The translations under genes and the position numbers were made by a program. The notes beneath the pieces are model-generated. The model did no database searches, was not told the origin of the DNA, and worked only from the letters and a program-made list of their open reading frames with translations. From contig OX597816.1 of the NCBI GenBank assembly GCA_951406725.2, positions 138,446,001 to 138,510,000 of the forward strand: DNA of 64,000 nt, written 5' to 3'. The first letter of the stretch is position 1. Each line of letters opens with the position of its first letter. This document shows positions 4,591 to 63,560 of this stretch, in pieces. This DNA comes from Octopus vulgaris (Eukaryota).

Positions 4591-5187
4591 TATATATGTA
4601 CGTATGTATGTATGTATGTATGTATATATTCTCACATACACGCACGTATGTATCTATGTGTCTATGCATGTATGATATATGGATGTGCGTATGTATGCAG
4701 CGCGTATTCATGCGTGTATATAGTTTAACTTAATTTTTCAAATTTCTCTCGGTTTTTAATTTTTCTTCCTTTATAATTACGTTTGTGCTTTATCATATGT
4801 GTATTTTTTTAAATTTTATCTGCCAGTTATCGTATCGCATTGATTGTAGAGATCATGTTTCTTTTTTTTTTTTTTTGTTAGAAATTTTTTCCTTCCTTTT
4901 AGTAACTACATATTCTACACTTTGTCAACATCCATTAATCGGTTTCCGATCTCGGTACAAATTCCACCGCCAACAACGCTAACAACCGTTCAGATCCGAT
5001 TGCTCTTCTTATTTGCATACACTCCGAAATTTTTCTTGTTTGTTTGTATTTTGTCTTTTGTTGTTTTTGTTGAAGCTATTTTTTGTTGTTACAATTGGTA
5101 TCATTGTTGATATTGTTATTGTTGCTGTTACTCGCTAATGTTGAAGCTGCTGCTGATGTTGACATCTGACATTTTACAGTTGTATTC

Positions 5188-6555
<1,368 letters not shown>

Positions 6556-7594: not shown

Positions 7595-7806
7595 TACTGG
7601 CACAAGGCGGCCAGCAAGTTCTGGGGAAGAGTCTGGTCGATTACATCACATCAACCCCAGTGCTCGACTGATACTTATTTTACCGGCCCCGAAAGGATGA
7701 ATGGCAAAGTTGACCGCGGCGGAATTTGAACTCAGGACGTAGCGACAGGCGAAATGCCGGTAAGCATTTCACCCGCCGTGCTAACAATTGTGCCAGCTCG
7801 CCGCCC
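7595..7806 (-). mobile_element. SINE family A copy
   Basis: Reverse complement of the family A head and core (…GAAAGGATGAATGGCAAAGTTGACC…GGAATTTGAACTCAG…GCCAGCTCGCCGCC). Confidence 0.85.
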
Positions 7807-7969
7807 TTGTTGTTATTCTAATGTTCAACAGTGAACTGACTCTCTGACTCACTCAAGCCTCATTCCTGTTCCTTTAGATAATTAAAAGTGTGCAGCCACT
7901 GCATTTGTCCTTCGTACTACTTATCTAAGAAATGATTAATGCTGCTATTGTGGTACCATATTATCTTCG

Positions 7970-17694: not shown

Positions 17695-17699
<5 letters not shown>

Positions 17700-17860
17700 A
17701 CGGATTTCTTTCAGTTTTTCATCTACCACATCCACTTGCAAGGCTTTGCTCGGCCTGAGGTTACAGTAGAACACTCTTGGCCAAGGTGATACGCAATGTG
17801 ACTGAACCTCGAACCATGTGGTTAGTAAGCAAGCTTCTTACCACATAGCCACGCCTGCGC
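17695..17860 (-). mobile_element. SINE family B partial copy
   Basis: Matches the family B head (…GAACCATGTGGTTAGTAAGCAAGCTTCTTACCACATAGCCACGCCTGCGCC). Confidence 0.8.
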
Positions 17861-18129
17861 CTTGTTTAGGTTTACAACACTCTTTGAGAGAAGGTGTTTC
17901 TGTGGCCGGAAACATCTGTTTCTTGCAATAAATACATTTAAAGCAATATTTCCTTCTTGGGCCCTTAAAATACCACTGTAGATCCCTAATTTATTATTTT
18001 GCTTGAGTGAACCCCGACCCCTACCACCACCAAAAAAAAAATTATTATATGTATCCCTAGGTGCCATATGGACCCCGGTTGAAAACCACCGTTCTAAATG
18101 TTCTCTGAGATAGCTCCAACACGGATGTC

Positions 18130-20337: not shown

Positions 20338-21330
20338 GCGGGTTGACCTAAAAGTCCGTTTGGGTCTTTTGAGCGAAAACAACACAAGTTTTAAACACAG
20401 CGATTTATTCAATGAATGATATAAATGCCGTTTTGTTTCCAGTATCTTTTGCCAACTTGTGGGCAGATCCGGTATTCTCTGTTCAAAGCATTTCCTGTAC
20501 TGGCAAATTTCTACATCCTTTTTAGAGACTCAATGAATTTTTAAGAAACCGAAATAGAAATAAATCTGAAAATGCAAGGTTGTGCGAATACGGAGAGAGC
20601 AGAAAAATTCCCGAGTCAGTCCCAGTAAGGAGGAGTGGCTGTGTGGTAAGTAGCTTGCTAACCAACCACATGGTTCCGGGTTCAGTCCCACTGCGTGGCA
20701 TCTTGGGCAAGTGTCTTCTGCTATAGCCCCGGGCCGACCAATGCCTTGTGAGTGGATTTGGTAGACGGAAACTGAAAGAAGCCTGTCGTATATATGTATA
20801 TATATGTATATATGTATATATATGTATATATGTGTGTGTGTATGTGTGTGTGTTTGTCCCCCTAGTACTGCTTGACAACCGATGCAGGTGTGTTTACGTC
20901 CCCGTCACTTAGCGGTTTGGCAAAAGACACCGATGGAATAAGTACTGGGCTTACAAAGAATAAGTCCCGGGATCGATTTGCTCGACTAAAGGCGGTGCTC
21001 CAGCATGGCCGCAGTCAAATGATTGAAACAAGTAAAAGAGTAAAAAGAGTAAAAGAGTAAAGAGTAACTTCTGCTGTGTCTGCAAAGAAGTATGCAGTCT
21101 GGCATTGTCATGATGAAAGGCAATACTTTTACAATTAGTAAGTGTTGCACGCTTCTGGTATATAATTTGTCCCGCTGGTCACAGTACACATCCGAACTAG
21201 TGGTCTCCTGCCCGTGTGAAGAAGCTCGTAAAAAACAACGTCCTTCCAATCCCACCAAACAGAAATTAGGCTGAAGCCTGTTGGATTGTATATGGTAACG
21301 AAGAATATTTCCTTGTTTAACACAACAACT
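20338..21330 (-). mobile_element. Decayed mariner (3' part with TIR), interrupted by a family B SINE
   Basis: Fragments LISVWWDWKDVVFYELL, HDNARLHTSLQTQQKL and PYSHNLAFSDLFLFRFLKNSL. The terminus GCGGGTTGACCTAAAAGTCCGTTTGG (20338) resembles the TIR at 3791-3819. Confidence 0.8.
20628..21067 (+). mobile_element. Full-length SINE family B (tRNA-like head, CORE-like segment, internal microsatellite, LINE-like tail)
   Basis: GAGTGGCTGTGTGGTAAG (A box), GGGTTCAGTCCC (B box), GTGGCATCTTGGGCAAGTGTCTT, an internal (TA/TG)n, and tail GGCGGTGCTCCAGCATGGCCGCAGTCAAATGATTGAAAC(AAGAGTAA)n. AGTAA flanks both ends. Confidence 0.9.
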
Positions 21331-27711: not shown

Positions 27712-28351
<640 letters not shown>

Positions 28352-31521: not shown

Positions 31522-31883
31522 TTACAAGACCACTCATTTACAGAGGGGAGAAAGAACTTGTGTGAACTTAATGTTTTTTAAAGGGTATTAAAGGCTAATA
31601 CGAAACGAATTAGCTTACGCCAAAGTTGTAAAAACGTTTGGCGAATTTAGTTCAGCGGAATATTATCTCTTATCAACACCTCAAACAGAATAGCAAATTT
31701 GGTAGAAGTGGACTTTATAATCGACTGCATCGGTTCATGTATTTGTGATAGTTGTATAAAGGTTCGAAAGATTATATTAGTACCACTGGGAATTGAACTC
31801 AGAATTTAGAGGTGGCGAACTAAATATTTGTTAAGTTCGGTCTCAATCAAAATTAAAGGTGGTATAAATAATTACTGATTCCT

Positions 31884-32120
31884 AAGGCGGCGAGCTGGCA
31901 GAAACGTTAACACGCCGGCCGAAATGCTTAGCAGAATTTCGTCTGCCGCTACGTTCTGAGTTCAAATTCCGCCGAGGTCGACTTTGCTTTTCATCTTTCG
32001 GGGACGATAAATTAAGTACCAGTTACGCACTGGGGGTCGATGTAATCGACTTAATCCGTTTGTCTGTCCTTGTTTGTCCTCTCTGTGTTTAGCCGCTTGT
32101 GGGTAATAAAGAAATAGGTA
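31884..32120 (+). mobile_element. Full-length SINE family A with apparent target-site duplication
   Basis: Family A consensus. GGTATAAATAATTACTGATTCCT occurs both before (31861-31883) and after (32117-32139) the element. Confidence 0.9.
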
Positions 32121-33144
32121 TAAATAATTACTGATTCCTTTTGAAAGCGTATGAAGGACAGCTTTTGTAGAAGCAATTGAAACGATTCGAGTATTGTACT
32201 GGCATTTATTCTATCAAGTGCAGACAACCCAGAAGGATTTATGAAAATATTGTTTGTCATTTGTCAAAACTGTTGTAACAGTTCGTCTATCTTCCTTGAT
32301 AGTATACAGCCTTTTGGTTTAGGTGCAACTTCCTATATTTGTAAGGGACACCACGTTCATGCGTTTCTCTACATGATTAGCTGTGTAAGTGAAATTAATT
32401 TGGAGCAACATAAAATGGACACAGGGTTGCCATCTCAACACGCCAGCTTTCGTTTGAAAGCTTCTTGACTAGATCCAAATATTTTTTTTATATCTAAACG
32501 AGAAAAAATAAAAAGAATGGCGTTTGTGTTTTCTCAACTACGTTATTTGTTTAAGTGCAAAGTTTTATTTTGGAATTGAATAGATGAATTCAAATTTAGC
32601 ACCTCCATTGACTTATGGTACATAATATACTGGAATAGAAGACCTGGTTGTAGGTGAATTCATAATTTGGTAGGATGTAACTAAATACAAAAGAATGGAC
32701 CTAATGCTTGACTGTTTCTATGACAGTATAAAATTCAAGCCATACAAATATTGATTTGAAGATTGGCAGAAAGGCAGACACCTGAAGGCAATACACGTTC
32801 TCAACAAGTGTAATGAATTTACACGTTGTACGAAATGGATCAGTTACACATACGTGGATTCGTTACATACAGTTGATGTTATTTAACGAAGAAATTTTAG
32901 GCTTTTCATAATCAAACGCTGCTGCATCCAAATGTTTTAACAATTGCGAAAATATTAAGCCGATAGCGAAAGATCCAATTAAAGCATTGCATATGTACAC
33001 AACACCCTAAGTTTCTTCGGACCCACCCTGATGAAGCGACCAAATTACTTTCATTTAATTAATCTTTGATATTTCAGGTATACAAGTTTGCGTTTATTGT
33101 AAATACTGGGGACTAAAAGTGTGAAGACATTTTATATTTGTTTA

Positions 33145-33282
33145 TTCTCTTACTTGTTTCAGTCATTTGACTGCGGCCATGCTGGAACACCACATTTAAT
33201 CGAACAAATCGCCCCCCTCCACCGGACTTATTCTTTGTAAGCCTAGTACTTATTCTATTTGTCTCTTTGCCGAAACGCTAAG

Positions 33283-33352
<70 letters not shown>

Positions 33353-33632
33353 GTACACACGACGGGCTTCTTTCAGATTCCGTCTACCAAATCCACTCAC
33401 AAAGCTTTGGTCGGCCTGATAAGTTCTTTTGCCGAACTGTTATGTTATGGAAATGTAAACATACCAGCGTCGGTTGTTAAACAGTCGAGCAATGGGCAGG
33501 GGTGGGGGTCTAACACACACACACATACATACACATATATGTATAGCTGAATACACTTGCCCAAGGTGCCACTGAACCCGGAACCATGTGGTTGGGAAGC
33601 AAGCTTCTTACTGCACTGCCACGCCGGCTCCT
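33145..33632 (-). mobile_element. SINE family B, rearranged or partly duplicated copy
   Basis: Family B tail, body and head in reverse complement, with an internal (CA)n. Confidence 0.8.
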
Positions 33633-33699
33633 ATTCGTAACTTAAATTAAAATTCACAGTTTGTATATTCAGCCTACAACCGGGTTCAGTTCTAACATT

Positions 33700-35233: not shown

Positions 35234-36774
35234 ACTGCTGCCGAATGCGATAAGTAACAATAAACTACAGAAGAACTGAAAATTTTTGTTGCATTTAAGT
35301 ATTACATTACTATTTAAGCCTATCTTTTAAAAGTACGACGATAAATCTTCTGCCGCCACTTAATTTAAAAGACAGTTTGATGTACGTAGGTCTTTACGTT
35401 TCGTACAAGTCATTATTTCTATTTCATGGGTGGCTTTCGATGGATTTCGCAATTTACTCCGATTATTCCCAAATTTATTTCCAAGTTATAAAAACTGTCA
35501 TATTAATATGCTAACACTAACGTAGTTACGTACGTACGTACCTGTGGTGCGTGTCACACTTAGTTCAAAGGAAGAGATAAAAAGAGAGAAATAAAACTTG
35601 TTAAGCGGAAGTAGTTGAAGTAAGAGGCAAACCAGCAAAAAATAGGGAGTAGGAGGGAGTGAAAGAATGAGAGAGAGAGATAGAGAGGGGATAGAGGTAA
35701 GAGGTTAAACGCAGGAGAAAGGTTAGAGGCAAAAAGACATAGCGGAGGGAGGAGGAAGAGAGAAATATGTTTAGAGAGATAGATTGAGTGAACGAAAGGA
35801 GTGGATAAAGGAAGATAGTGAAAAGGAATGAAGCTATTCTCAGAGGATAAACGCTGAAAAACTTTTTGTTTTGGATGATATATGATAAAGGCATTGTGAC
35901 AGTTATTTTATGCAGTTTGAAAGGTAATTGTATAAAACTTCATGAAAAAATACTTATTTTCCTGAAAGTTATGAAGCGGAAAATGTCAAGTCGTGTGAAT
36001 TTTCCGAAACTCCTCTCCCTAGCCCATCAGAAATTTTTTCCAACAAATCTTAATATACACTCAATCAACAGGATCTAAGCGATTATTTATGGAATTTATG
36101 AGGCAATAAAGTCGGTGAGGTATATATCTGTATTCATGTAATGCCCTTAACTATTCGATAGTTATTAAATGAAGTTACTATTTACAGATGCTTACATTTT
36201 TTTATATTTTCCGTGAAGTTTTCACAGGTCCATCTAGTAAAAATTATTATCGTACAAAAAATATCATTGTGGATCCCAACTTTATGATTTGGGTACTTGG
36301 ACACCCCACGCAAAAAAATGTGGACCGTCAGCAGCCGTATGGACCTCGATTGAATACCAGTGATCTAACTGTTGTCACAGCACCCTTCTAGGAGAGGAAC
36401 ACTGATATAAAACCTGCGGCTTTATATTATCATTTATTGGTCATCTCAGTTCGGGCTGTCACTAGGTACTAATCACAGAGATTCAGAGAGCAGTACTCGT
36501 GTTGTAGAAGTACAGATGTTCGTTTATGGTGACTTCGTCATTCCATCTACCGAAAGTTCTATGGCAACAGAAGAGGAGCGACGTGTGTAGACCTAACAAA
36601 TTGGATGCGTGCAGTGAGCTATAACTTCTATCACTTATGCTTCAAATACTGCAGATCAGCAACGGGATTGAACAGTCATCTGAGTGGTCATGGATCGTAA
36701 GTCATAAATGCTATTGACAACGTGGAAGCACAAGGAAATAAATATACACACACACACACACATACATATTTTTC

Positions 36775-36974
36775 TATTCTTTTACTTGTTTCAGCCATGT
36801 GACTGCGGCCTTGCCGAAGCACCGCCTTTAGTCGAAAAGATCGACCCCAGGACTTAATTTTTGTAAGCCTAGTACTTATTCTATCTGTCTCTTTTGCCAA
36901 ACCGCTAACTTACGAAGACGTAAGCAAACCAATATCGGTTGTCAAGCAATGGTGGTGAGACAAACTCGGACACA

Positions 36975-37028
<54 letters not shown>

Positions 37029-37190
37029 GATATATATATATATATATATACAACGGGTTTCTTTCAGTTTCTGTCTACCAAATCCACTCACAAAGCTATA
37101 GTAGAAGACAAAGTGCCACATAGTCGGACTGAACCTGGAACCATGCGGTTGGTAAGTAAGCTACTTATCACACAGCCACGCCTACGCCTG
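36775..37190 (-). mobile_element. SINE family B copy
   Basis: Family B consensus in reverse complement. Confidence 0.85.
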
Positions 37191-37336: not shown

Positions 37337-38995
37337 ATTAGAAAGACGTGGCTTATGTCTCAGCTGTCTTGCTTTTGACAAGTGTTTGATGTTTGCCTTT
37401 TTTTATAGGGAGTTCATGGCTCAAATTAGTATGTGTTTTGAATAGATTTGTATGGTAGAGAATAGTCACATGACTGGTCATAGAAAAGTTTGTAGGTTTC
37501 CCGCTACGTCCGTGCATTAGTATCAGTGCCAATGTTCGGCGTCATAAGTTAAGGCTGACACAGTTGACTGAACAGATCCAAACAATCAATGCTCTGAATG
37601 TTTTATGTCAAGTGTTTGTAGAGAATGAACACATGATTAAGTTTTTAACCTTTTGTACATTTCCCGCTATGTCCGTGCGTTAGTGTCACATGACAGCATA
37701 TTTTGCACCTAAAAAGACGGGCGACACGGTTGAGTGAACATGTTTAGTTATAATCAGAGCACTCCAAATTTAATCTATCCGGTGGAAGAGTGGACACGAG
37801 TCGTTTGTATGAAGTTCAATGGCTAAAATTTAGATTAATTGTGTAGCTTCCTTGACAAGTGGAAGAATACATTTTATGTGTAAATGGATATTTGTGTATG
37901 TACTCTGTTAAAGTTTAAGTCTTGATTTGTACTTTTGTATGAAATTATTTTCTTTGTCTATCCGTGCTTCATGTGTGGTATTCGCTGAACATAGGTAGAG
38001 TGAGAAGACTTGGAATTTGGGAGATATATTTTTTGCACATATGTCTATGTGACCGCTCAGTGGAATCTGTCTAGTACTCGGGTCTCGTATTTGTCGTAGG
38101 TGAATGGTCGGTCAGTCTATTTCTTAGAGTAAGCTTTGTTTGACCTATGTAATCTTCATTACATCCTTGATATTTGATAGCAAATTTAAAATTCTTCATG
38201 TAAAGTAATTTTTTATGGTAAAAGTCTGTATCGATTTGAATTTGTATGTTGCATCTTCAATAAGATTGACACAGATCCCGCAATTGTGGTGGTCACATAT
38301 TTTGGTGTAGGAATTGTGGAACGTAATTTAGCACTTCTAAGGAATTTTTTTGCGGGACTTTGATTGTCTTTATCATTTTGTGTGTTTCGAATGTTTGTTT
38401 CATTCTTGGATCTTCTTTTAGTAGTGGAACATCCTGGTGGATAATATTGTAAACCTCTGTGTTTCTTGAATTGTGTGTTGTAATTATTTGCTGTATCTGG
38501 AGCGTTTTTCATTTTTCGTAGTTCTTCGATATTTATTGCTTTGGCACGTTCTATTCCGTTGTCTATTAGCATTAATGGATATTGTCTTTTAAGTAGTACT
38601 TGCTTTAGTTCCTGGAGTCTCTTATCGCGAGTTTCAGAGTTTGAGACAATTGTGCAGATTCTTCTTATTAGATTAAGGGGATTATTATCCTACGTGTGTT
38701 TGGGATGGCATGAAGAGAAGAGTGATTATTATGTTGAATCTGATTGTCTGTAGTGAATATCTGTTTCAATGATTTTATTTCCTTTGAGGATTAGTATATC
38801 TAGGAAAGGTAGTTGAGTTTTACAGTATTCCAGGGTAAAGTTAATATTATTGTTTATGCTGTTGCTAAGATTTTTGAAATTTATATGTTGTTCAAATATG
38901 TACGTCTATAGGATTAGGCAGTCATCTAAGTAACGTTTCCAGTTTTCTTGTAGATATTTGTGGAAGGTCAAGCCATATATTAATTTAAATTGTTC

Positions 38996-39220
38996 AGGCG
39001 CAATGGCCTAGTGGTTAGGGCAGCGGACTCGCGGTCGCAGGATCGCGGTTTCGATTCTCAGACCGGGCGTTGTGTGTGTTTATTGAGCGAAAACACCTAA
39101 AAGCTCTACGAGGCTCCGGCAGGGGGTGGTGATCCCTGCTGTACTCTTTCACCACAATGGCGGTGCCCCAGCATGGCCACAGCTCAAGAGCTGAAACTGG
39201 AAAAACAAAAACAAAACAAA
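38996..39220 (+). mobile_element. SINE family C inserted into the RT of the decayed PLE
   Basis: A box TGGCCTAGTGG, B box GGTTTCGATTC, tail GGCGGTGCCCCAGCATGGCCACAGCTCAAGAGCTGAAAC. It splits the RT between the PTYAN and RYLDD motifs. Confidence 0.9.
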
Positions 39221-40654
39221 ATACCTCCATGTATGCCTTGACTACATTGGCGTAGGTTGGAGGAACTTTTGTCACCATTGCTGTCCCAGATATTTGTTTG
39301 TAAGTATTGTCATCGAAGTAAAAAAGTTGTTTTCAAGGATAAATTTTAATCTTTCAACGATGAAACTCTTTTCAATTCTGTCCCGAATTTCATGAGGGAA
39401 CTTCTCAAGCCAAAAATTTATTGCCACTAGTCCATATTGGGGTATGACTGTGGTATATAGGTTTACCACATCAAAAGATACACTAGTGGTATCAGTGTTT
39501 ATGGATTTTGGGAGGTGGTTTAACAGGTCCGGGTCGTCCCCCACTAGACTTGGTACGTATTTTAAAATAGGTTTCAGTATTACATATAAAAAGTTGCTCA
39601 GCTTGTGTGTTTCACAAATGGGGCCTTCTACGATTGGTCTACATTTAAGGTCGGTTGGGTATTGTATGTTTATGTAACTTGACATAGTTTTTTTACATGC
39701 ATTCTTAATATTTTGATTTTTATGGATTTGAGGAGACCGTAGAAGTATCTAGTCTTGCAATCAAAATGGGTTAAGCATTCACGTTCTTTGTTAAACCTTT
39801 TTTATGTCTGGGAATGAGTGTGTTCAGCTTAGTGATTGTCTTCGATTTACCTTTTAGTAGTGGGGTATATCTTGTAATATAGATAAGTTATCTCTTTTGT
39901 AGTGTTCAATATCCATAATAACTATTGCACTTACCTTATCTGCTTCTTTAATTATAATGTCATTATTGTTTTTCAGTTCTTGTATAATATCCCACTCCTT
40001 TCGACTTGTATTGGGCTTGATCTTAGGGTGTGGGAGTTCTTTATAGGGGATAGTTGAAATATAATCACAAAATTTATCTAAAGCTTTATTCTTGCCTTTC
40101 ATAGGCTTGTAATTACTCTTGTTTCTTACATTTGAATCGTCCCTGATGTCTTTATCGTACAATTCCTCAGTTAGGCGTAGTTTTCTACAGAACTGTGAAA
40201 TGTCGTTTTGTATTTCACTGGATATAGGGTTTTGCGGTGTTGGGGTAAATTTTAGGCCTTTTGACAAAATATTAATTTCTTCTATTGAGAAAGTTTTTTT
40301 TTTGATAAGCCAATTATCTTCGGTTTTTCATCTTCGGGTTGTACAATCTGGTGTCGAGTACTCTATTGATTGGATCAAAAACATGATTTTTCAAAGTTTT
40401 CCTTTTATTAGTATTTATATATCCGAGGACATTTTCTTTTGTATCGATTTTGTACGTTTGCTATACTGTATTGTGTTTGTTTCTTTTAAGTCGATATTTT
40501 TTATCCATTGTGTATGTCGTGAATATTGAGGAAAGTGCAGTCCAGTCGGAGGGAAAATTCCAATTGTTTTAGTTGGATTATTTCGTTGTCGAAGTAGTCT
40601 TGAATTGCCCTTATGGAATTGGTGACTATAATTTCCATATTTAGGTGTTTGTCG

Positions 40655-41090
40655 TCCGCCCTAATTGTGGGACCTGCATCAAACTTATTGAAGACAACAT
40701 ACAAATTCAAATCAGGACAGTCTTTTAGCGTAAACAATCACTTTACATGTTCTTCAAAGAATTTAATATACGCTATCAAATGTCAAGGATGTAAATATAT
40801 GTGGGGAGGAGCGTGAGGGTGCACGCTTGCATCAATATAGACATACACACAAAACTATTTGACCGCTCCCACACACCCAGATCGCTAGCCACTACACATT
40901 CTTTATTTTCTCTCTTTATTTTCTCTCTCTGTTTCTTTTTGTGTTCCTTTCTGTGAAAGAGCGTAGGCTCGAAACGTTAAAAACTTTTTCACTTCCCGAG
41001 CGTTATACTAATACATCTGTTTGTTGTCTACATCACTTGTCTTCGTCTTTTGTTTTTTGTTTTTTGTGAATTCTCCCCACATACACAACT
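40655..41090 (+). mobile_element. Inverted PLE fragment: Cys linker/GIY-YIG start followed by a pseudo-LTR copy
   Basis: Reads PNCGTCIKLIE…YKFKSGQSFSVNNHFTCSSKNLIYAIKCQGC, homologous to 38160-38290 on the opposite strand. 40875-41085 matches the pLTR family. Confidence 0.8.
40946..40983 (+). ncRNA. Minimal hammerhead motif, decayed CUGUGAA core
   Basis: CCTTT-CTGTGAA-A-GAGC-GTAG-GCTC-GAAAC-GTT-AAAAA. Confidence 0.6.
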
Positions 41091-44406: not shown

Positions 44407-44631
44407 TACTCTTTATACTCTTTTACTTGTTTCAGTCATTTGACTGCGGCCATGCTGGAGCACCGCCTTTAATCGTGCAACTCGACCCCGGGACTTATTC
44501 TTTTGTAAGCCCCATACTTATTCTATCGGTCTCTTTTGCCGAACCGCTAAGTAACGGGGACATAAACACACCAGCATCGGTTGTCAAGCAATGCTAGGGG
44601 GACAAACACAGACACACAAACACACGCACGC

Positions 44632-44662
<31 letters not shown>

Positions 44663-44822
44663 TACGACGGGCTTCTTTCCGTCTACCAAATCCACTCACA
44701 AGGCTTTGGTCAGCTCGAGGCTATAGTAGAAGACACTTGCCCAAGGTGCCACTCAGTAGGACTGAACCCGGAACCATGTGGTTGGTAAACAAGCTACTTA
44801 CCACACAGCCACTCCTGCGCCT
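44407..44822 (-). mobile_element. Full-length SINE family B
   Basis: Family B consensus in reverse complement with internal (CA)/(TA). Confidence 0.9.
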
Positions 44823-44952
44823 ATATGTGTATATATAAATATACATACAGAGAGAGTGTGAGAGAGAGAGACAGAGAGAGAGAAAGGGAGAGAAATGAAT
44901 ATATATATACCTATATACACACACACACAGACACACACACACACATATATAT

Positions 44953-46217: not shown

Positions 46218-46254
46218 GTATGTATATACATACATAAATATACATACACATATG

Positions 46255-46657
46255 GGCGCAGGAGTGGCTGTGTGGTAAATAGCTTGCTTAACAACCACAT
46301 GGTTTCGGGTTCATTCCCACTGCGTGGCACCTTAGGCAAGTGTCTTCCACTATAGCCTCGTGCCGACCAAAGCCTTGTGAGTAGATTTGGTAGACGGAAA
46401 CTGAAAGAGGCCCGTCGTATATATGTAGGTGTGTGTGTGTGCATGTGTGTGTATGTGTGTGTTTGTCCTCCCATCATCACTTGACAACCGATGCTGGTGT
46501 GTTTACGTCCCCGTAACTTAGCGCGTCGGCAAAAGAGACTGATAATATAAGTACTAGGCTTCCAAAGACTAAGTCCTGGGGTCGATTTGCTCGACTAAAG
46601 GCGGTGCTCCAGCATGACCGCAATCAAATGACTGAAACAAGTAAAAGAGTAAAAGAA
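46255..46657 (+). mobile_element. Full-length SINE family B
   Basis: Family B consensus. Confidence 0.9.
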
Positions 46658-46664
46658 TATACAC

Positions 46665-46781: not shown

Positions 46782-48292
46782 CACGTATATATTCATAGAG
46801 ATATTGACATATATACTCAAGCATATGCAAATACGTATATGTACATGCATATGTTGTGTATTTATAGCTGATTATAGATGTGACTGGTTATTACAGAACT
46901 GACATAACTGTTTGTTTGTAATCTATCAACTGTTAATCATACTTCGTGCTTATATAGAGATGTGTGTGTATGTTTGTGTGTGTGTATGCGTGTGCCTCTG
47001 TGTGTATGTGTGTGTGTGTGAGTGTGTACCACACAGATGCTCTTTGCTAAACTCACAAAGCATTAGACGATGCGAGGTTATAGTAAAGGACATTGCCACT
47101 GAACTGAACTGGGGGCTACGTCCATTACGAAGTGAACTTCTTAACCATAGACCCATATCTGAGTCTATAACACTAATCAGGGAATAATAGATAAACGCAG
47201 GATGGCGGCAAGTGTCAAACGTTCTAGTCGTAAGTCCTGTGAGAAAAAAAATTTCTGCGAATTTTTCTAAAATAATAAATTATCAGTAATAAAACAGGAA
47301 TCGACTTAGACCCTCCCTTAAAAATTACTGGCATAAGCTGAAATTTGAAACAATTTCACTTGTCTGAAAGACAGCAATCCTACGATTTCAAATTATTTGA
47401 TTACTTAAATAATAAAAAAAAAATATGTGAAAAATAAAAGAGCCATAATATCTTTTATAGACATATACACACATGCTACAAGTTAGAGTGAATGGGGTGA
47501 CTAATCATATATAGGAGAAACACCAGTAACCAGCTGGTACTGATCATATCGACCCCAAATGAAAACAATTTATGTATTTATATATGCACGCATTTATATG
47601 AATGTACGTATGTATGTCATTATTCAGTTTTATTTCATGATTTCTTGCCAATAGAGAAAGAGCCGGTTTCTACATTAGATCCAAAGCTTCTTCATTGGCA
47701 GTTCAACATCAACAACAGGGTACTTTTGAAAGTATGTATGTTAGTATGTATGAATACGTACATATTTGTGTCTTGTTTTAGATATGTATTCTAATGCATA
47801 AAGTTGCTTATCTAGACAAGTACATGTACTTAAATGATAAACTTCTGGAATGTTTTACAGATTTTTACAGTTCCAGTGATGGGTTGACTCTATAATATTC
47901 AAATCAGCTTTCTCCTTCCTGCTTTTGAGAAGGTTAATTTCTCAAGATGGGTATTTAGATGGTAATTACAGGTATAAACCTGAACCTTTAATCAGGGTAG
48001 AGAAACTGCAAACTTCTCAATAGTTCAGGGTAGGTATTTTCTTCTTCACTTTAGCTTTATGTTAACATTTGCATGTATGTATGTATGTATGTATGTATGT
48101 ATTTATGTATAAATGTGTGTATGTATGTATGTATGTATGTATGTATGTATGTATGTATGTATGTATGTATATATGTATGTATGTATGTAGGTATGTATGT
48201 ATGTATGTATGTATGTATGTATGTATGTATGTATGTATGTATGTATGCATGTATGTATATAAATATATATGTGTGTGTACGCGCGTGTGTCC

Positions 48293-48328
48293 CTTTCTGT
48301 AGAAGAGCGTAGGCTCGAAATGTAAAAG
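48293..48328 (+). ncRNA. Minimal hammerhead motif, CUGUAGA core, in a short pLTR copy (about 48285-48420) ending in (TA)n
   Basis: CTTT-CTGTAGA-A-GAGC-GTAG-GCTC-GAAAT-GTA-AAAG. Confidence 0.65.
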
Positions 48329-48639
48329 ACTTTTATTATTCCTGAGCGTTATACTAATACATCTGTTTGTTTTGTACACCACCTGTCTTCGTCTTTTGCT
48401 TTTTTCGTAAACTCTCCCTATATATATATGTGTATATTTATATCTATACCTATACCTTTATTTATATCTATCTATGTTTGTATGTACATGAATGTATGTA
48501 TATGTGTATATATGCATGTATTCATACATACGTGTGTATATATATTAGTACCGAAAAGCAGTCTTTACATCCTACTGAACGTCGATATATTTGAAAAACG
48601 GAATAATTCTGTGTTATTTGAGTTGAATATTGAATTATA

Positions 48640-49120: not shown

Positions 49121-49538
49121 AGTAGTGGCTGTGTGGTAAGTAGCTTGCTTACCAACCACATGGTTCCGGGTTCAGTCCCACTGCGTGGCACCTTGGGCAA
49201 GTGTCTTCTACTATAGTCTCGGGCCGACCAAAGCCTTGTGAGTGGATTTGGTAGACGGAAACTGAAAGAAGCCCGTCGTATATATGTATATATATATATG
49301 TATATGTATGTGTGTGTGTTTGTGTGTCTGTGTTTGTTCCCCCAACATCGCTTGACAACCGATGCTGGTGTGTTTAATTCCCCGTTACCTAGCGGTTCGG
49401 CAAAAGAGACCGATAGAATAAGTACTAGGCTTACAAAGAATAAGTTCTGGGGTCGATTTGCTCAACTAAAAAAGGCGGTGCTCCAACATGGCCGCAGTCA
49501 AATGACTGAAACAAGTAAAAGAGTAAAAGAGTAAAAGT
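49121..49538 (+). mobile_element. Full-length SINE family B
   Basis: Family B consensus. Confidence 0.9.
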
Positions 49539-52731: not shown

Positions 52732-52760
<29 letters not shown>

Positions 52761-52764
<4 letters not shown>

Positions 52765-53268
52765 ACGGGAAGCTTTATGAAAATAGACAAAAGACGAAGG
52801 CAGGTGGAAAACAAACGAACAATTGTATTAGTATGGCGCTCAGGAAATATAAATAAAACAAGTCTTTAACGTTTCGAGCCTACGCTCTTCAACAGAAAGA
52901 TACACAGAGAGAAAAAAACACAGAAAGAAGGAGAGAAAAAAAATGCGTGCAGTAGCTAACGAATCAACATGGCGATCTGATTTCGGCCAGAGGTCAAAGA
53001 TCAAACATGAGACGCGAGAGCGAAATAAGGGGAGATAATAGGGTTGATAATATGGTTGAAGGACCAGCTAATAGTGCGTAGGAGGGGTCTGGACGTGTGT
53101 ATGTATAGGGTTGGTGTATGTATTAGTATGTATAAGGGTGTGTGTGTGTGTGTGTATGAGAGAGTATTAGTGCGTAGGATTGGTGTGGACGTGCGTATGT
53201 ATGGGGTTGGTGTATGTATTAGTATGTATTAGTATGTATTAGTACGTATTAGTATGTATAAGTGTGTG
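52761..53268 (-). repeat. 3' pseudo-LTR
   Basis: Matches 57234-57720 except for an 8-nt indel, one visible substitution and microsatellite or 10-mer copy numbers. Confidence 0.95.
52863..52900 (-). ncRNA. Minimal type-I hammerhead ribozyme motif (CUGUUGA core) in the 3' pLTR
   Basis: Minus strand TCTTT-CTGTTGA-A-GAGC-GTAG-GCTC-GAAAC-GTT-AAAGA. Stem I has 5 bp, stem II has 4 bp, and stem III is the loopless palindrome ACGT. Minimal hammerheads in PLE pLTRs are established. Confidence 0.8.
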
Positions 53269-53450: not shown

Positions 53451-53732
53451 TGAGGAGAAGAGAGGGAGGGGAGGGGAGGGGGAGGAGAGGGGGAAGAGGA
53501 GAGGAGGGGAGGAGGAAGGGGAGGGAGGAGGAAGGAGGAAAGAGGGAGAGGGGAGGGAGGGAGGGAGGGAGGGAGGGAGCAGAGGGAAGGGGAAGAGGGA
53601 AGGAGGGAGGGAGAAAGAGGGAAGAAGGGAAGAGGAGTAGGGGTGAAAGGATGAAGGACTGAAGAAGTAGGGGTCGGGGGAAAAGGATGGGTGAGGAGGG
53701 GGAGAGGGGGTTTAGATGAGGAGGGGGGGAGA
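53451..53732. repeat. G/A-rich polypurine tract (polypyrimidine in the PLE 3' UTR)
   Basis: Almost pure purine over 53451-53637 with many GGG runs. Confidence 0.9.
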
Positions 53733-56617
53733 GTTGAGACCAAATGGCGTATAAGAGCGAAGAGAGAAGATTAATTCCTGTTCACGGCGCAAACGGGAAT
53801 CCGGATGGCCTCTGTGTAAGGACAAACCGAACACAGATAGGTGTTGCAAGGAGTGACCGGTGGAGCGGAAATGGCGTGAGACCGGTGTGTCGTTCGCAAG
53901 GTGGATGTCACGAAGGTGTTCCGCGAACCTCTCAGCCAAGCGGCGTCCCGTTTGTCCGATGTACAAGGAATTGCAGAGAGAGCAAGAGATGCAATAGATA
54001 ATATTGCTGGAGGTGCAGGTGAAGGAGTGGATGATGGGATAGGGTCGATGGTGGGTGCTAGTGAGGCGGGTGGTGTTGGAGAGGTAAGGGCAAGTGCGGC
54101 AACGTGGGCGGGAGCAGGGGAACGAGCCGGGTTGGGAGGTAGGGTCAGGGAAGGAGCTATGGACCAAAAGGTCTCGAAGGTTGTGGGCTCGTTTGAAAGA
54201 GGGGAGGGGTCGGTTAGGGAAGAGGTGTGAAGTGGACGGGTCGGACTGGAGATGACGGAAAGCTCGAAGAATGGTGCGTTGGAGACGTAGGGTCGTGGGG
54301 TGGTAAGTGAGGGGAAAAGAGAGGCGGGAGACTACAGGGCGGGTTCGAGGAGAGAGAGCAGATACACGGTCCACGGACCGTGCTCTGGCAAGGGCGGTGT
54401 GGATAGTGGTGAGGGGGTATCCACGTAGGGTGAAGTGGTGAGCCATACGTTGAGACTGAGTCTCAAAGTCATGGTCGTCACTACAGAGCCTACGTAGACG
54501 GAGGAATTGGGAATAGGGGATGGAAAGCTTGGTGTGTTCTGGGTGGGAGGAAGAGAAGTTGAGGTATGAGTGTGAGTCTGTGTGTTTGTAGTGAATGGAG
54601 GTGGTAAGAGTGGAGTGAAGAATGCTAACCGAAATGTCGAGGAAGGAGACAGAGGTGTTGGAGATAGTGGAAGTGAAGTGGAGGGCTGGATGGAAAGATT
54701 GGACGAAAGAGAGGAAGGAATCTAGATGTTCGCGGGAGAGTGAGGTGGCACCGATAATGTCGTCGATGTAACGACCATATAGTTCGGGAGTGGGACCAGT
54801 GAAATTAGAGAATATTTGGGCCTCAACATAGCCAACGAACAGGTTCGCATAGTTGGGGCCCATTCGCGTTCCCATGGCCACTCCCGAGACCTGATGGTAG
54901 AACTCGCCCGCGAACGAGAAGCAGTTCAGAGTAAGGACAAGTTCGGCCAGACGAATGAGTGTAGAGGTGTCAGGTACAGGGTTAGAGCGGAGGTCAAGAA
55001 AGTGTCGAAGGGCCTGCAGTCCTTCGTGGTGAGGGATAACAGTATAGAGGCTTTGGATGTCCATAGTAAAAAGGATTTTGGAGGAGCCGGGAGGAAAGGA
55101 GAAAGGGTTGAAAAGCCGGAGAGCATGGTTGGTATCGTGGATGTGGGAGGGAAGAGATGCCACTAGGGGGGCAAGGACACGGTCGAGGTATTTAGAGATG
55201 AGCTCCGTGGGGCAGTTACAGGCGGAGACGATGGGGCGGCCAGGGTTGTTGGGTTTGTGGATTTTGGGGAGGAAGTAAATGGTGGGGGTACGTGGGGTTC
55301 GCACAATTAAGTTGGATGCGGTGCGGGGGAGACGGGAGGACGAGATGAGGTCGTGGACAGTAGAGGATACCGTCTGTTGGTAGCTACGTGTGGGGTTAGA
55401 GGGCAGAGGGGAATAGAAGGAGGTGTCATTGAGTTGGCGGAAAGCCTCGACCCTATAGAGGTCCGCGCGCCACACCACTACAGCTCCACCCTTGTCAGCC
55501 GGTTTGATGATAATGTCAGCGCGCCGTTGGAGGGAACGGAGAGCCAAGAGCTCAGCCGGGGAGATGTTGAGGCGGCGTTGGCGCCTGGAGAAGTTGAACC
55601 GCTCCAATGCACGCTGACAAGCGCCCGCGAAAAGATCCACTGCTAGGATCTGGCCAGGGGCAGGCGTCCACGGGGATGGTCGGCGGCCCAGGCCAGTGAA
55701 GCAGTCCTCTTCGTTGGGTGTGGGTGGCGAGTCGTGGTAATGCGCACCCAACCGGACACGGCGCACAAAGCTGTGGACATCAACTCGCGTCTGGAATTCC
55801 TTACAGGATGGAGTGAGGGGGATGAAACGCAGACCCCTACCAAGGACGGAGCGTTCAGCCGCAGAGAGGGGAAGATCGGGGGGAATGGTAACAACAGACG
55901 GAAGTGGAGAAGGGGTGGGTGGAATAGAAGTAGGAGGGGTGGTAGGTCTCGTGGAGGTCTGAGGGGGAGGGATTGGGGAGGTGTGTGGAGGGTGGTTGGG
56001 CGGGGCAGTAGGGTTAGGTGTAGGTGGATGGAGCCTATCGGGAGGGGAGAAGGGGTTGTAGGGAGGGGCAGTGGGGTTAGGTGTGGGTGGATGGAGCCTA
56101 TCGGGAGGGGAGAAGGGTGGTGGAGGAGTTGGGGTAGTGGCGTCGGGTAGGGTGGAATGGAAGAGTGATTGGAGTTTACGAAGTTTGGTATCAGAAATAA
56201 ATTGATGGAAGAGTTGATTCAAATGGATAATGAAGCGTAGCGTGTTTGGAGCATAGAGAGGCGGCAGAGAGGAGAAGAAGGTGGAGAAAGCAGGAGGAAG
56301 AAGGTGGTTGATGGCATGTAGTTTGGAGAGATTGGAGCGAATGGTGGCCCGCATAAGGCGGTAAGATGTGGTGCGGAGTATGGGTAAGATGGAAGAATCC
56401 GAGTGGAGAGCAGGGTGGAAGTGGAGGCGGAAACCTTTAGAGATGAGTCGGTGATGTAGGCAGCGGCTTAGGAAAGAGACATGGCTAGAGAAGCGGGTTT
56501 TTTAAAAAGAAGTAGAGAGAGATTAACGGACGGCTGAAGGCAATATACAGGAAGAGAACGGAGATGATCCTTCAAACGGTGATGGAGGGTGAGGAGGTAG
56601 GACCTAGGATCCGGCAT
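53712..56617 (-). CDS. PLE polyprotein: reverse transcriptase, Cys-rich linker and GIY-YIG endonuclease (880 aa open from 56354; about 968 aa from ATG 56617 if one frameshift at 56498-56503 is bridged)
   Basis: Motifs GLRFIP, IKPADKGGAVVV, YFLPKIHK…GRPIVS, MDIQSLYT, GVAMGTRMGPNYANLF, RYIDD, SFLD, CSRPRCRTC, IIYCISCSLCNSLYIGQT…RFAEH and PFGLN. In-frame upstream of 56354 it reads HVSFLSRCLHHRLISKGF. Confidence 0.95.
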
Positions 56618-57233
56618 GATGGGATAGCGGGAAAAAACGTTCGAAAAAACAAAAAAAAACAAAAAAAAACAAAACAAAAAACAAAAATTATCGTATGAAA
56701 AAAATAGAAAAAAAGGGAAAAAACAAACGTTCAAAAAAACAAAAAATAATAATCGTATGAAAAAACTAGATAAGTAAGCGATAGGGGCAGAAAAGACGGG
56801 GCAAACGGAAAAGGGAAAGAAAGAAGAGAAGCAGAGAGAGGGAGGCAAAAAAAGGGGGGGGCAGGCAGAGGAAACGGAGTATGGACATCCAGAGAGGGAA
56901 GAAAGACAGAAAGGAGAACAAAAATGCAGGAAAATGTGGAAAGCGTGAAATGAATGTAAAAAAAGTGGTAATATAAGAGAAAATAAAAATACAACAAACG
57001 GGACAGTTTATGCGAACAAGTTCAAGGTTGAAAGTTCAAGGTGAGAAATGTGTAGACGTCGTGGTATATTTTTTAAGGATTTCACATCAATGCAAAGTCA
57101 CTTTGATCCGCGAAAGAGAGGTGCAGCCAATGGTAAGTATCCAAGAGGTAAAGAAAATCCAAGGTAGAGGTAAGTGTTGATAGTGGTATTGGTAGAATAT
57201 AGGATGAAAGTGAGACCACGTGAGCGCATAATA

Positions 57234-57720
57234 TATAACGGGAAGCTTTATGAAAATAGACAAGGCAGATGGAAAACAAACGAACAATTGTATTAGTATG
57301 GCGCTCAGGAAATATAAATAAAACAAGTCTTTAACGTTTCGAGCCTACGCTCTTCAACAGAAAGATACACAGAGAGAAAAAAAACACAGAAAGAAGGAGA
57401 GAAAAAAATGCGTGCAGTAGCTAACGAATCAACATGGCGATCTGATTTCGGCCAGAGGTCAAAGATCAAACATGAGACGCGAGAGCGAAATAAGGGGAGA
57501 TAATAGGGTTGATAATATGGTTGAAGGACCAGCTAATAGTGCGTAGGAGGGGTCTGGACGTGTGTATGTATAGGGTTGGTGTATGTATTAGTATGTATAA
57601 GGGTGTGTGTGTGTGTGTGTGTGTGTGTATGAGAGAGTATTAGTGCGTAGGATTGGTGTGGACGTGCGTATGTATGGGGTTGGTGTATGTATTAGTATGT
57701 ATTAGTATGTATAAGTGTGT
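57234..57720 (-). repeat. 5' pseudo-LTR
   Basis: Direct repeat of 52761-53268. Confidence 0.95.
57328..57365 (-). ncRNA. Minimal type-I hammerhead ribozyme motif (CUGUUGA core) in the 5' pLTR
   Basis: Identical to 52863-52900. Confidence 0.8.
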
Positions 57721-58087: not shown

Positions 58088-58508
58088 TTACTCTTTTACT
58101 CTTTTACTCTTTTACTTGTTTCAGTCATTTGACTGCGCCCATGCTGGAGAACCGCCTTTAATCGAGCAACTCGACCCCGGGACTTATTCTTTGCAAGCCC
58201 AGTACTTATTCTATCGGTCTCTTTTGCCGAACCGCTAAGTGACGGGGACGTAAACACACCAGCATCGGTTGTCAAGCAATGCTAGGGTGACAAACACAGA
58301 CACGCAAACACACACACATACACATACATATATATATATACATATATACGACGGGCTTCTTTCAGTTTCCGTCTACCAAATCCACTCACAAGGCTTTGGT
58401 CGGCCCGAGTCTATAGTAGAAGACACTTGCCCAAGGTGCCACGCAGTGGGACTGAACCCAGAACCATGTGGCTGGTAAACAAGCTACTTACCACACAGCC
58501 ACTCCTGC
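58088..58508 (-). mobile_element. Full-length SINE family B
   Basis: Family B consensus in reverse complement. Confidence 0.9.
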
Positions 58509-59269
58509 TGTTATCAATGTCACATACATAATGTATTCTATGACTTATTTAAACGGTTTTAGGCTGAGGTATTTCGTCCACTTTAAAGATGTAGTGTTAC
58601 AAAGCACAGTACACAACACATGTACTTATGTATGCACGTATGGTTGTGTAAATGCATGTATGTATGATTGTGTGTATGTATGTGTGTATGCATGTATGTA
58701 TGCATGCATGTATGTATGCATGCATGTATGTATGCATGTATGTATATGTTTTTCATGAAGCCAAAACATTGCAAGTTTATAAGAACTAATTTAGGTCGAT
58801 GGTTAATAATTTTAACTTGTATTTCAATATTTCAGGTTTATGATCCCTTCATCAGAAAATCTTAGCAGTCGTGTCATTTTGAGCCGACTCATATGCATAC
58901 ATACACGCGCACACACCTATGTGCACGCACAGACACACACACACACACGTACACACACAGTTATAAAGCCCACATTCTTACGAATAATATTTTGTATATA
59001 TTTCTCCCACAATTCATCCCATCTAAAATGCATCTTGTTCCTTCTCTTTGTCCGTTCTTTCTTCTTCTGATGCTGACTACTGAGAGTTCTGTCTGCATCA
59101 GATGTTGCTAGGAGTAAAGCAGCCAACGTGACGAAACCAATTCTATTTACCCCACAGACAGAGTTGAGTGATACATTTGAAAGAACAATTTCCAAATCAG
59201 TGATTTTAGCGAACCATCCTGATGTGACAACGCAACTGTTCTTTATCATTCATCCACCCATCTTATCCG

Positions 59270-62340: not shown

Positions 62341-63560
62341 TAAGGCGGCGAACTAGCAGGACCGTTTCGCCGAGGTCGACACTACCTTTCATCCTTACGG
62401 GATCGATTAATTAAGTACCAGTTAAGTACTGAGGTTTACGTAAACAACTTACCCTTCTCTTCAAATGTCAAGCTTTGTGTCTGCAGCAGAAAGGAATATT
62501 AAATTCTTTTGGAGTCGAATTGACAAAGTCAATAGAGCAATGGATGCCTCGAGATAGTTTTTTTCAACTCTATACGTTTCGCGTTCAAATTCCACTGAGA
62601 TAAAAATTTCGTCTTTCATACTTCTGAGTTAGGTAAAGAAAAAAAAAACACAATTAAAGGCAGCTGATTGAGGGAAGTTTTAGTGTGTCGATGATAAGAT
62701 AAGATGGGTGAGGTGTGTGATCTCTGTTCTGGCTATTTCTATTCTGACAGTAACGCCTATGATGACATGCTCCCGTGCTGTATAGACCTTTAGTCAGTGA
62801 TGTTGCCCTTGAATAAAATCGGTGACGTAAGTAGCTACCAGTCATCCGTACATACAGACACACAAAAAGGAAAATAAAATTTGACTAGACCTGAGCAAAC
62901 ATAAACAGACGAGCGGTCGACCTTGAACAATGGAGGCCTAAAATTCTTACTTCTTTTAGCTGATGTAATCATGTTTCAAATTTTGGCACAAATTTTGGTC
63001 GATTACATCGACCCCACTATTCAACTGCTACTTTTATCAACTTCGAGTGGATGAAAGGCAAACTCAACCTCGGCGGAATTTGAACTCAGAACGCCAAGAC
63101 GGATGAAACGCCACTAAGTATTTTGCCCTGCCTGCTAAAGATTCTGCCAGCTCACCGCCTTTTTAGCTGATGTAGTAATAGCGTCCATTATTATCAATCG
63201 CTAAAGAGGTGAGCTTGGCAGAAACGTTAGCGCGCAGGACAAAATGCTTAGCAGAATTTTTTCAGGCTTTTTACGCAATGAGTTCAAATTCCACCATGGT
63301 TGACTACCCTTTTCGTCCTTTCGGGGTCGATCAAATAAAGCGCAGTCAAATACTGGGGTTCATATGTTCGACTTCTCCCTCCCCGCAAAACTGCTGACTT
63401 TGTGCCAAAATTTAAAACCATATCTATTAACCCGTCAGGCGAACTACCATTATGGCTATATTGTATATATTGGTGTATTATTTCAGGCTTTTTGTGTCCT
63501 GAGTCCAAATTCTGCCGAGGCCAGTTTTGCGTTTCATTCTCTCCGTTTGAATAAAGATTA
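62341..63560. mobile_element. Cluster of diverged SINE family A copies (about 62341-62500+, 62975-63160-, 63205-63420+, 63480-63560+)
   Basis: Family A head and core motifs are recognisable in each copy. Confidence 0.75.

Follow-up and report, generated by a model that had tools for sequence, protein, structure and literature searches.

The window analysed here is a 64,000-nucleotide stretch of the Octopus vulgaris genome (2.8 Gb, rich in microsatellites) and carries on its minus strand a Penelope-like element (PLE) bounded by two pLTRs (Table 1). The pLTRs are direct repeats that differ by 2 substitutions and 18 gap columns in an alignment of 495, and a comparison of copy ends placed the end of the element near 52765, approximately 100 bases downstream of the predicted ribozyme cut and running into (TA)n. 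The 929-codon frame exhibited an RVT_1 match above the Pfam cut-off (E = 4e-07), a GIY-YIG match just under it (E = 3.4e-04; 21.3 bits against a cut-off of 22.6) and, in translation, a CX4CXXC linker between RT and EN at approximately 54090–54116. In the accessible part of PMC8557442, a CX2-5CxxC linker between RT and EN together with a microsatellite insertion bias defines the Neptune/Nematis type. These features are present (RT then a C-terminal GIY-YIG between direct pLTRs, the CX4CXXC linker, (TA)n ends), and by the linker criterion the window element is classified as an EN+ PLE of Neptune/Nematis type. All 74 copies scored in a protein search, among 28,231 candidates, showed 98–100% protein identity and were free of stops; as judged from sequence, the family is recently active and the most recently amplifying.

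The N-terminal start of the window copy, an ATG near 56617, is out of frame with the 929-codon frame because an A-run near the start of the open reading frame (approximately 56495–56510) is one base shorter than in 16 of the 23 young loci that span it. The length of this run differs between copies of the young element, and its shortening in the window copy is either a mutation or a homopolymer assembly error.

Other repeats lie in the same window. An older, broken element at 38159–40794 on the minus strand has an inverted end repeat and RT-like fragments that look Penelope-like by eye; a Pfam search of this element returned no match. Dispersed repeats of approximately 410 bases occupy 17698–17862, 20628–21029, 33133–33634, 36763–37189, 44407–44837, 46239–46660, 49121–49537 and 58097–58509, and a family of 170–240 bases occupies 5187–6209, 7634–7808, 31882–32118 and 62996–63383; both are probably SINE-like.

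Table 1 Features in the window, and genome loci of the second U6 family.
Feature	Position	Strand	Basis
3' pLTR	52758..53243	minus	self-BLAST, 96% to 57231–57716
5' pLTR	57231..57716	minus	self-BLAST and pairwise alignment
RT, CX4CXXC linker and C-terminal GIY-YIG endonuclease	53712..56501	minus	929-codon stop-to-stop frame
Minimal type I hammerhead motif with U6 core, 3' pLTR	52863..52900	minus	sequence and predicted stems I and II
U6 hammerhead motif, 5' pLTR, identical to the 3' copy	57328..57365	minus	sequence comparison
Older truncated copy, core CUGUCGA, decayed 16.2 and 3' stem I arm	28209..28246	plus	self-comparison
Older truncated copy, core CUGUAGA, GUA triplet	48292..48329	plus	self-comparison
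Older truncated copy, U6 and G7, G8 changed to A (decayed core)	40946..40983	plus	self-comparison
Second U6 family	L256:4325–5480 (G000:C2, approximately 201.000–201.0015 Mb); L257, L258, L212, L221		

A hammerhead motif with U at position 6

Both pLTRs carry the motif on the sense strand, as do the minimal type I hammerheads of metazoan PLEs. Read on the minus strand from 52900 to 52863, it consists of a stem I arm (UCUUU), the core CUGUUGA, an extra A, stem II (arms GAGC/GCUC around the loop GUAG), then GAAA, CG, U, U (U17) and the second stem I arm (AAAGA), and both stems appear in the predicted fold. In the 3' pLTR, C3 falls at 52895, U6 at 52892, N7 at 52891, G8 at 52890, G12 at 52875 and H17 at 52868, with the predicted cut between 52868 and 52867; U6 of the 5' pLTR is position 57357. 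The family motif retains C3, U4, G5, G8, A9, G12, A13, A14 and A15.1-U16.1, together with the unpaired base between 9 and 10.1, the G10.1-C11.1 pair closing stem II and a palindromic C-G at 15.2/16.2. Folding stability was z = −2.2 for the motif alone and z = −0.3 for the motif plus flanks.

An alternative register shifted by two bases (U3-U4-G5-A6-A7-G8-A9) restores A6, and was rejected because the variable site then becomes U4, stem II drops to two pairs and stem I is left open. An Rfam search of 52780–53060 (E ≤ 10) gave no hammerhead or other match, the 150 Rfam matches listed of 542 for the whole window were all microsatellite-driven miRNA models, and a solved-structure search with the motif returned no match.

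The sequence-only reading had reported CTGTTGA in both pLTRs and three dispersed copies with the same type of core. The pLTR motifs (52900–52863 and 57365–57328, minus strand) are indeed identical, the copies at 28214 (CTGTCGA) and 48297 (CTGTAGA) read as it had them, and the GUU and GUA triplets it predicted are both present. The copy at 40951, listed there as a CUGUNGA member, reads CTGTGAAA, with G at N7 and G8 changed to A, and is a decayed sequence outside CUGUNGA.

The motif resembles the minimal hammerheads of Cervera and De la Pena 2014 in its occurrence in both pLTRs on the sense strand, its short stem I, the extra base between A9 and G10.1, the G10.1-C11.1 pair, the palindromic 15.2/16.2 that replaces helix III, and thousands of dispersed truncated copies. 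It differs in U6: A6 is present in each of the 56 motifs in their Fig. S3, though the descriptor of that search required it, and the core variant they describe is U3-A8. The closest natural precedent is the A6C hammerhead of phage Bcep176 (Perreault 2011, PMC3088659; Naghdi 2020, PMC7151607; both accessible in part), which likewise has a substitution at position 6 in an otherwise intact core; its substitution is C, not U, and it is one phage motif, whereas here approximately 19,000 copies of an animal retrotransposon carry U, which has stayed fixed from one subfamily to the next. The phage ribozyme is slow in Mg2+, whereas the slowness of the window motif is predicted.

A literature search on hammerhead A6U, natural position-6 variants and Penelope hammerheads retrieved no natural A6U in the text that was accessible, and an earlier record is possible, for example in Lunse 2017. 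Literal matches to the core string, among those listed, were unrelated miRNA papers only. The Lunse work is said to comprise approximately 150,000 variants. The novelty is limited to one base of a known motif, of which cleavage is a prediction.

Position 6 across the genome and along the lineage

A 16-base anchor (stem II plus GAAA) occurs 24,016 times in the genome, and its reversed control 0 times, so the motif does not arise by chance. Among 20,091 copies whose core is otherwise intact, position 6 was U in 19,249 (approximately 96%), C in 511, A in 267 and G in 64, and because of this U in place of the A6 of minimal PLE hammerheads we file the motif as a variant and not as a canonical minimal hammerhead. 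So that copies were not chosen by the motif itself, we also searched with a downstream flank word, which has 20,661 matches; the first 100 of these listed yielded 92 copies. A first inclusion rule retained 33 of the 92, with U6 in 33/33; a fairer rule retained 72 and dropped 20 (18 truncated, 2 with the U6 motif). In these 72, which extend past the motif, position 6 was U in 70 and A in 2, N7 was U29/A23/C14/G6, and H17 was A in 56, U in 13, C in 1, G in 1 and a gap in 1. The identical U6 motif was present in all 30 loci with near-intact RT/EN, the window locus included, and the exact young 34-mer has 3,147 genome copies. Four public runs carrying four organism labels supplied contigs in which position 52892 showed no other letter at ≥3%; only N7, H17 and the outer stem I base varied at that level within the motif, and summed depth was highest over the motif. 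These results bear out the earlier claim that U6 is a family trait and not decay, the family consensus being U6. Its description as a trait of the youngest element holds in that U6 is fixed there, but U6 also extends to older subfamilies up to approximately 11% diverged from consensus.

A tree of 161 pLTR ends, built with position 6 masked and with A6 and C6 copies over-sampled by design, took the form of a ladder of subfamilies. We drew eight of these by hand, with mean divergence falling from 11% to 2%. Across their successive consensuses, 3 of the 38 hammerhead columns change, compared with 80 of 159 flank columns; for ungapped columns only, the counts are 3/37 and 46/120 (Fisher p = 4e-4). 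The hammerhead columns are more conserved than adjacent pLTR sequence, as the earlier claim required, with the qualification that the flanks are low-complexity and may simply mutate faster than the motif. The three changing columns are N7, with five steps, H17, with three, each between A and U, and one outer stem I base; the sites that change are those which a cleaving hammerhead leaves free. Thirteen core columns never change, and loop II and the extra A are equally constant; the constancy of U6 is not significant alone, since 74 of the 120 ungapped flank columns are likewise unchanged.

N7 had been described as varying freely. It does differ, but between subfamilies, in five successive changes, rather than freely among copies. 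Along the ladder N7 (52891) runs U, C, G, A, C, U, compared with a maximum of four changes in any of the 120 ungapped flank columns; diversifying pressure or a hotspot is possible.

A sister family (loci L228–L253 and L410–L499; at least 9,155 copies) has the same stem II, the loop UCC or UUU, and canonical A6, which was found in 79 of the 79 readable among 90 flank-picked copies, and it provides a natural control for the U6 motif. Stem covariation amounts to one compensatory stem I pair (C-G to G-C) against this sister family and none inside the U6 lineage, while other families have different paired stems. The deepest copies with the GUAG loop and one old side group also have A6. As the sister family has A6, U6 is probably derived; it most likely arose from A6 early in the lineage, long before the youngest subfamily. 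A single origin of U6 was neither established nor rejected (p-AU 0.124, in a tree that over-samples A6 and C6 copies).

A second U6 family and other hammerheads

U6 cores with other stems gave 200 genome matches compared with 38 in the control, and many of these belong to one family. Its motif has stem I UUGAAC/GUUCAA, stem II GGCA/UGCC, U-A at 15.2/16.2 and C17, and in 78 pattern matches position 6 was U in 75, A in 2 and C in 1. Units of approximately 160 bases lie within (TAA)n, arrayed in tandem or as inverted pairs, and have a predicted extended stem I containing an internal loop; a tblastn search for RT beside this family found no match. The family appears to be non-coding and non-LTR retrozyme-like: the animal non-LTR retrozymes of Li, Clavereau and Pollet 2026 (bioRxiv 10.64898/2026.07.22.740005) likewise have a non-coding tandem unit of approximately 160 bases with a type I hammerhead, while no core variant such as U6 was found in the accessible part of that work. 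From the unrelated stems and flanks, we infer that U6 in this family is independent of the first. Both families retain G5, G8, A9, G12, A13 and A14.

A general A6 minimal-hammerhead pattern gave 10,305 genome matches compared with 73 for its control. The U6 motifs of the young-element family (19,249) outnumber these matches, the two patterns differing in strictness, and descriptor searches that fix A6 therefore undercount hammerheads.

In a metagenome scan (119 loci listed), stems of at least six pairs occurred in 4 compared with 0.5 expected. Five of the 119 resembled minimal U6 hammerheads, and as the inverted partner has A6 in three of those five, the metagenome matches are not shown to be fixed families on present data. 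In the contigs L329, L403 and L388, hammerheads lie head to head, one of each pair with U6 and the other, inverted, with A6; except at position 6, L329 and L403 agree with the coral Neptune motif of Cervera 2014 Fig. S3. Another family, similar to L232 and L252, has left a decayed hammerhead of the canonical A6 minimal form (CUGAUGA) in the window itself, at approximately 58825–58860 on the minus strand.

Proposed slow cleavage and competing readings

The sequence-only reading left two options, a slow ribozyme or a fold kept for RT recognition. Sequence cannot decide between them, and modestly favours the slow ribozyme. With a probability of about one half, the U6 hammerhead may still cut RNA at a slow rate, needing dimer formation or the protein of the element to do so. 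Replacement of A6 by U throughout the lineage would weaken catalysis, since published A6C and other CUGA mutants are slow: the natural A6C cleaves at <0.1 per minute (PMC3088659, accessible part), prefers Mn2+ and cleaves well in it (PMC7151607, accessible part), and a deep scan of a type III hammerhead found low activity for every single mutant of the CUGA turn (PMC9901934, accessible part). Minimal PLE hammerheads cut weakly as dimers (PMC4209133). In addition, U4-G5-U6 may pair with A15.1-15.2-16.2, closing the monomer and hiding the palindrome needed for dimers. The predicted 6:15.1 pairing probability was 0.98 for the young motif, 0.34–0.63 in four older or second-family motifs, 0.0 with A6 and only 0.04 when U6 was placed into the sister motif; this lock is a nearest-neighbour prediction, and other closed folds arise with A6 in some motifs. 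When two monomers were cofolded the active dimer was not the lowest-energy fold, in models that carry no tertiary terms.

Slow cutting would cost little and be tolerated or even favoured if reverse transcription needs uncut RNA. The ends of copies lie approximately 100 bases beyond the cut site and 72 of the 92 copies continue across it, which suggests that the templates are uncut and that reverse transcription would start at that distance downstream. An occasional cut could serve to trim transcripts that are tandem or read-through. The Anolis Poseidon element PAc (Frangieh 2024, PMC11167929, accessible part) likewise has a pLTR hammerhead upstream of an internal reverse-transcription start, and as its hammerhead cuts only with protein it is a model for protein-assisted cleavage; it belongs to another clade, its hammerhead has another position relative to the start codon, and no position-6 variant was found in the accessible text. 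The second U6 family lies in tandem arrays, a layout believed to depend on a pair of functional hammerheads (bioRxiv 2026.07.22.740005, accessible part). The avoidance of G at H17 across its three changes is weak evidence.

We searched copy 5' ends for a cleavage footprint and observed no pile-up at the predicted cut (1/92 in the U6 family, 2/90 in the A6 sister); an automatic count of downstream starts in the U6 family was inflated by alignment breaks in old copies. This test gives no support to cleavage, and it does not separate the readings because the A6 sister also has no footprint.

The missing footprint is consistent with a motif that does not cut at all, whose hammerhead-like fold or sequence would be kept as a binding or positioning site for RT/EN near the internal reverse-transcription start; we regard this as possible but rather unlikely. 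In Anolis, catalytic mutants had no effect on insertion in vitro and no RNA reads ended at the cut site (PMC11167929, accessible part), so catalysis is dispensable there; CUGA mutants were near-dead in the deep scan (PMC9901934, accessible part), and the U6 family is nonetheless very successful. The invariance of loop II and of the extra A, equal to that of the core, would also suit conservation of the sequence itself for protein or DNA binding. However, among core positions only the catalytically free N7 and H17 change, a pattern that a pure binding site need not follow, and the six core bases shared by both U6 families are retained although their stems are unrelated.

It is improbable, in our estimate, that A6U is near-neutral in minimal dimeric hammerheads, cutting about as well, or as poorly, as A6 and fixed twice by drift in a master lineage. 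The side-by-side A6 and U6 copies in the oldest part of the lineage, the amplification of the A6 sister family, the sporadic U6 beside A6 partners in elements of other animals and a U6 constancy within neutral expectation would all fit; against it, published position-6 changes slow cleavage in Mg2+ (PMC3088659, PMC7151607 and PMC9901934, accessible parts), and the published representatives are A6 in 56/56, a count conditioned by their descriptor. We hold equally doubtful the boldest extension of the slow-cleavage reading, in which selection would have favoured A6U repeatedly, as a tuning switch, in two or more independent retroelement families: the core would pair with its own dimerisation palindrome and lock the monomer until an element protein opens it, timing cutting to the transposition cycle, and U6 hammerheads, outnumbering canonical ones here, would form a large class invisible to CUGANGA-based searches. 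Least probable is a dead passenger, or a motif conserved for a DNA-level reason such as a promoter or endonuclease site, with the flank contrast due to pyrimidine-tract mutability: low-complexity flanks with 74/120 ungapped columns unchanged and the fall in z on adding flanks would fit, but the substitution-only contrast is significant, a stem I pair is compensatory against the sister family, and other families combine this core with entirely different stems.

The finding bears on why PLEs keep hammerheads. In this genome the family that amplified most recently carries a core expected from mutagenesis to be slow, beside an A6 sister family, and a comparison of the two offers a natural way to learn whether these elements require cleavage. 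Cleavage by U6 would add to the natural cores known to be tolerated, and a lack of it would mean that the motif serves something other than catalysis.
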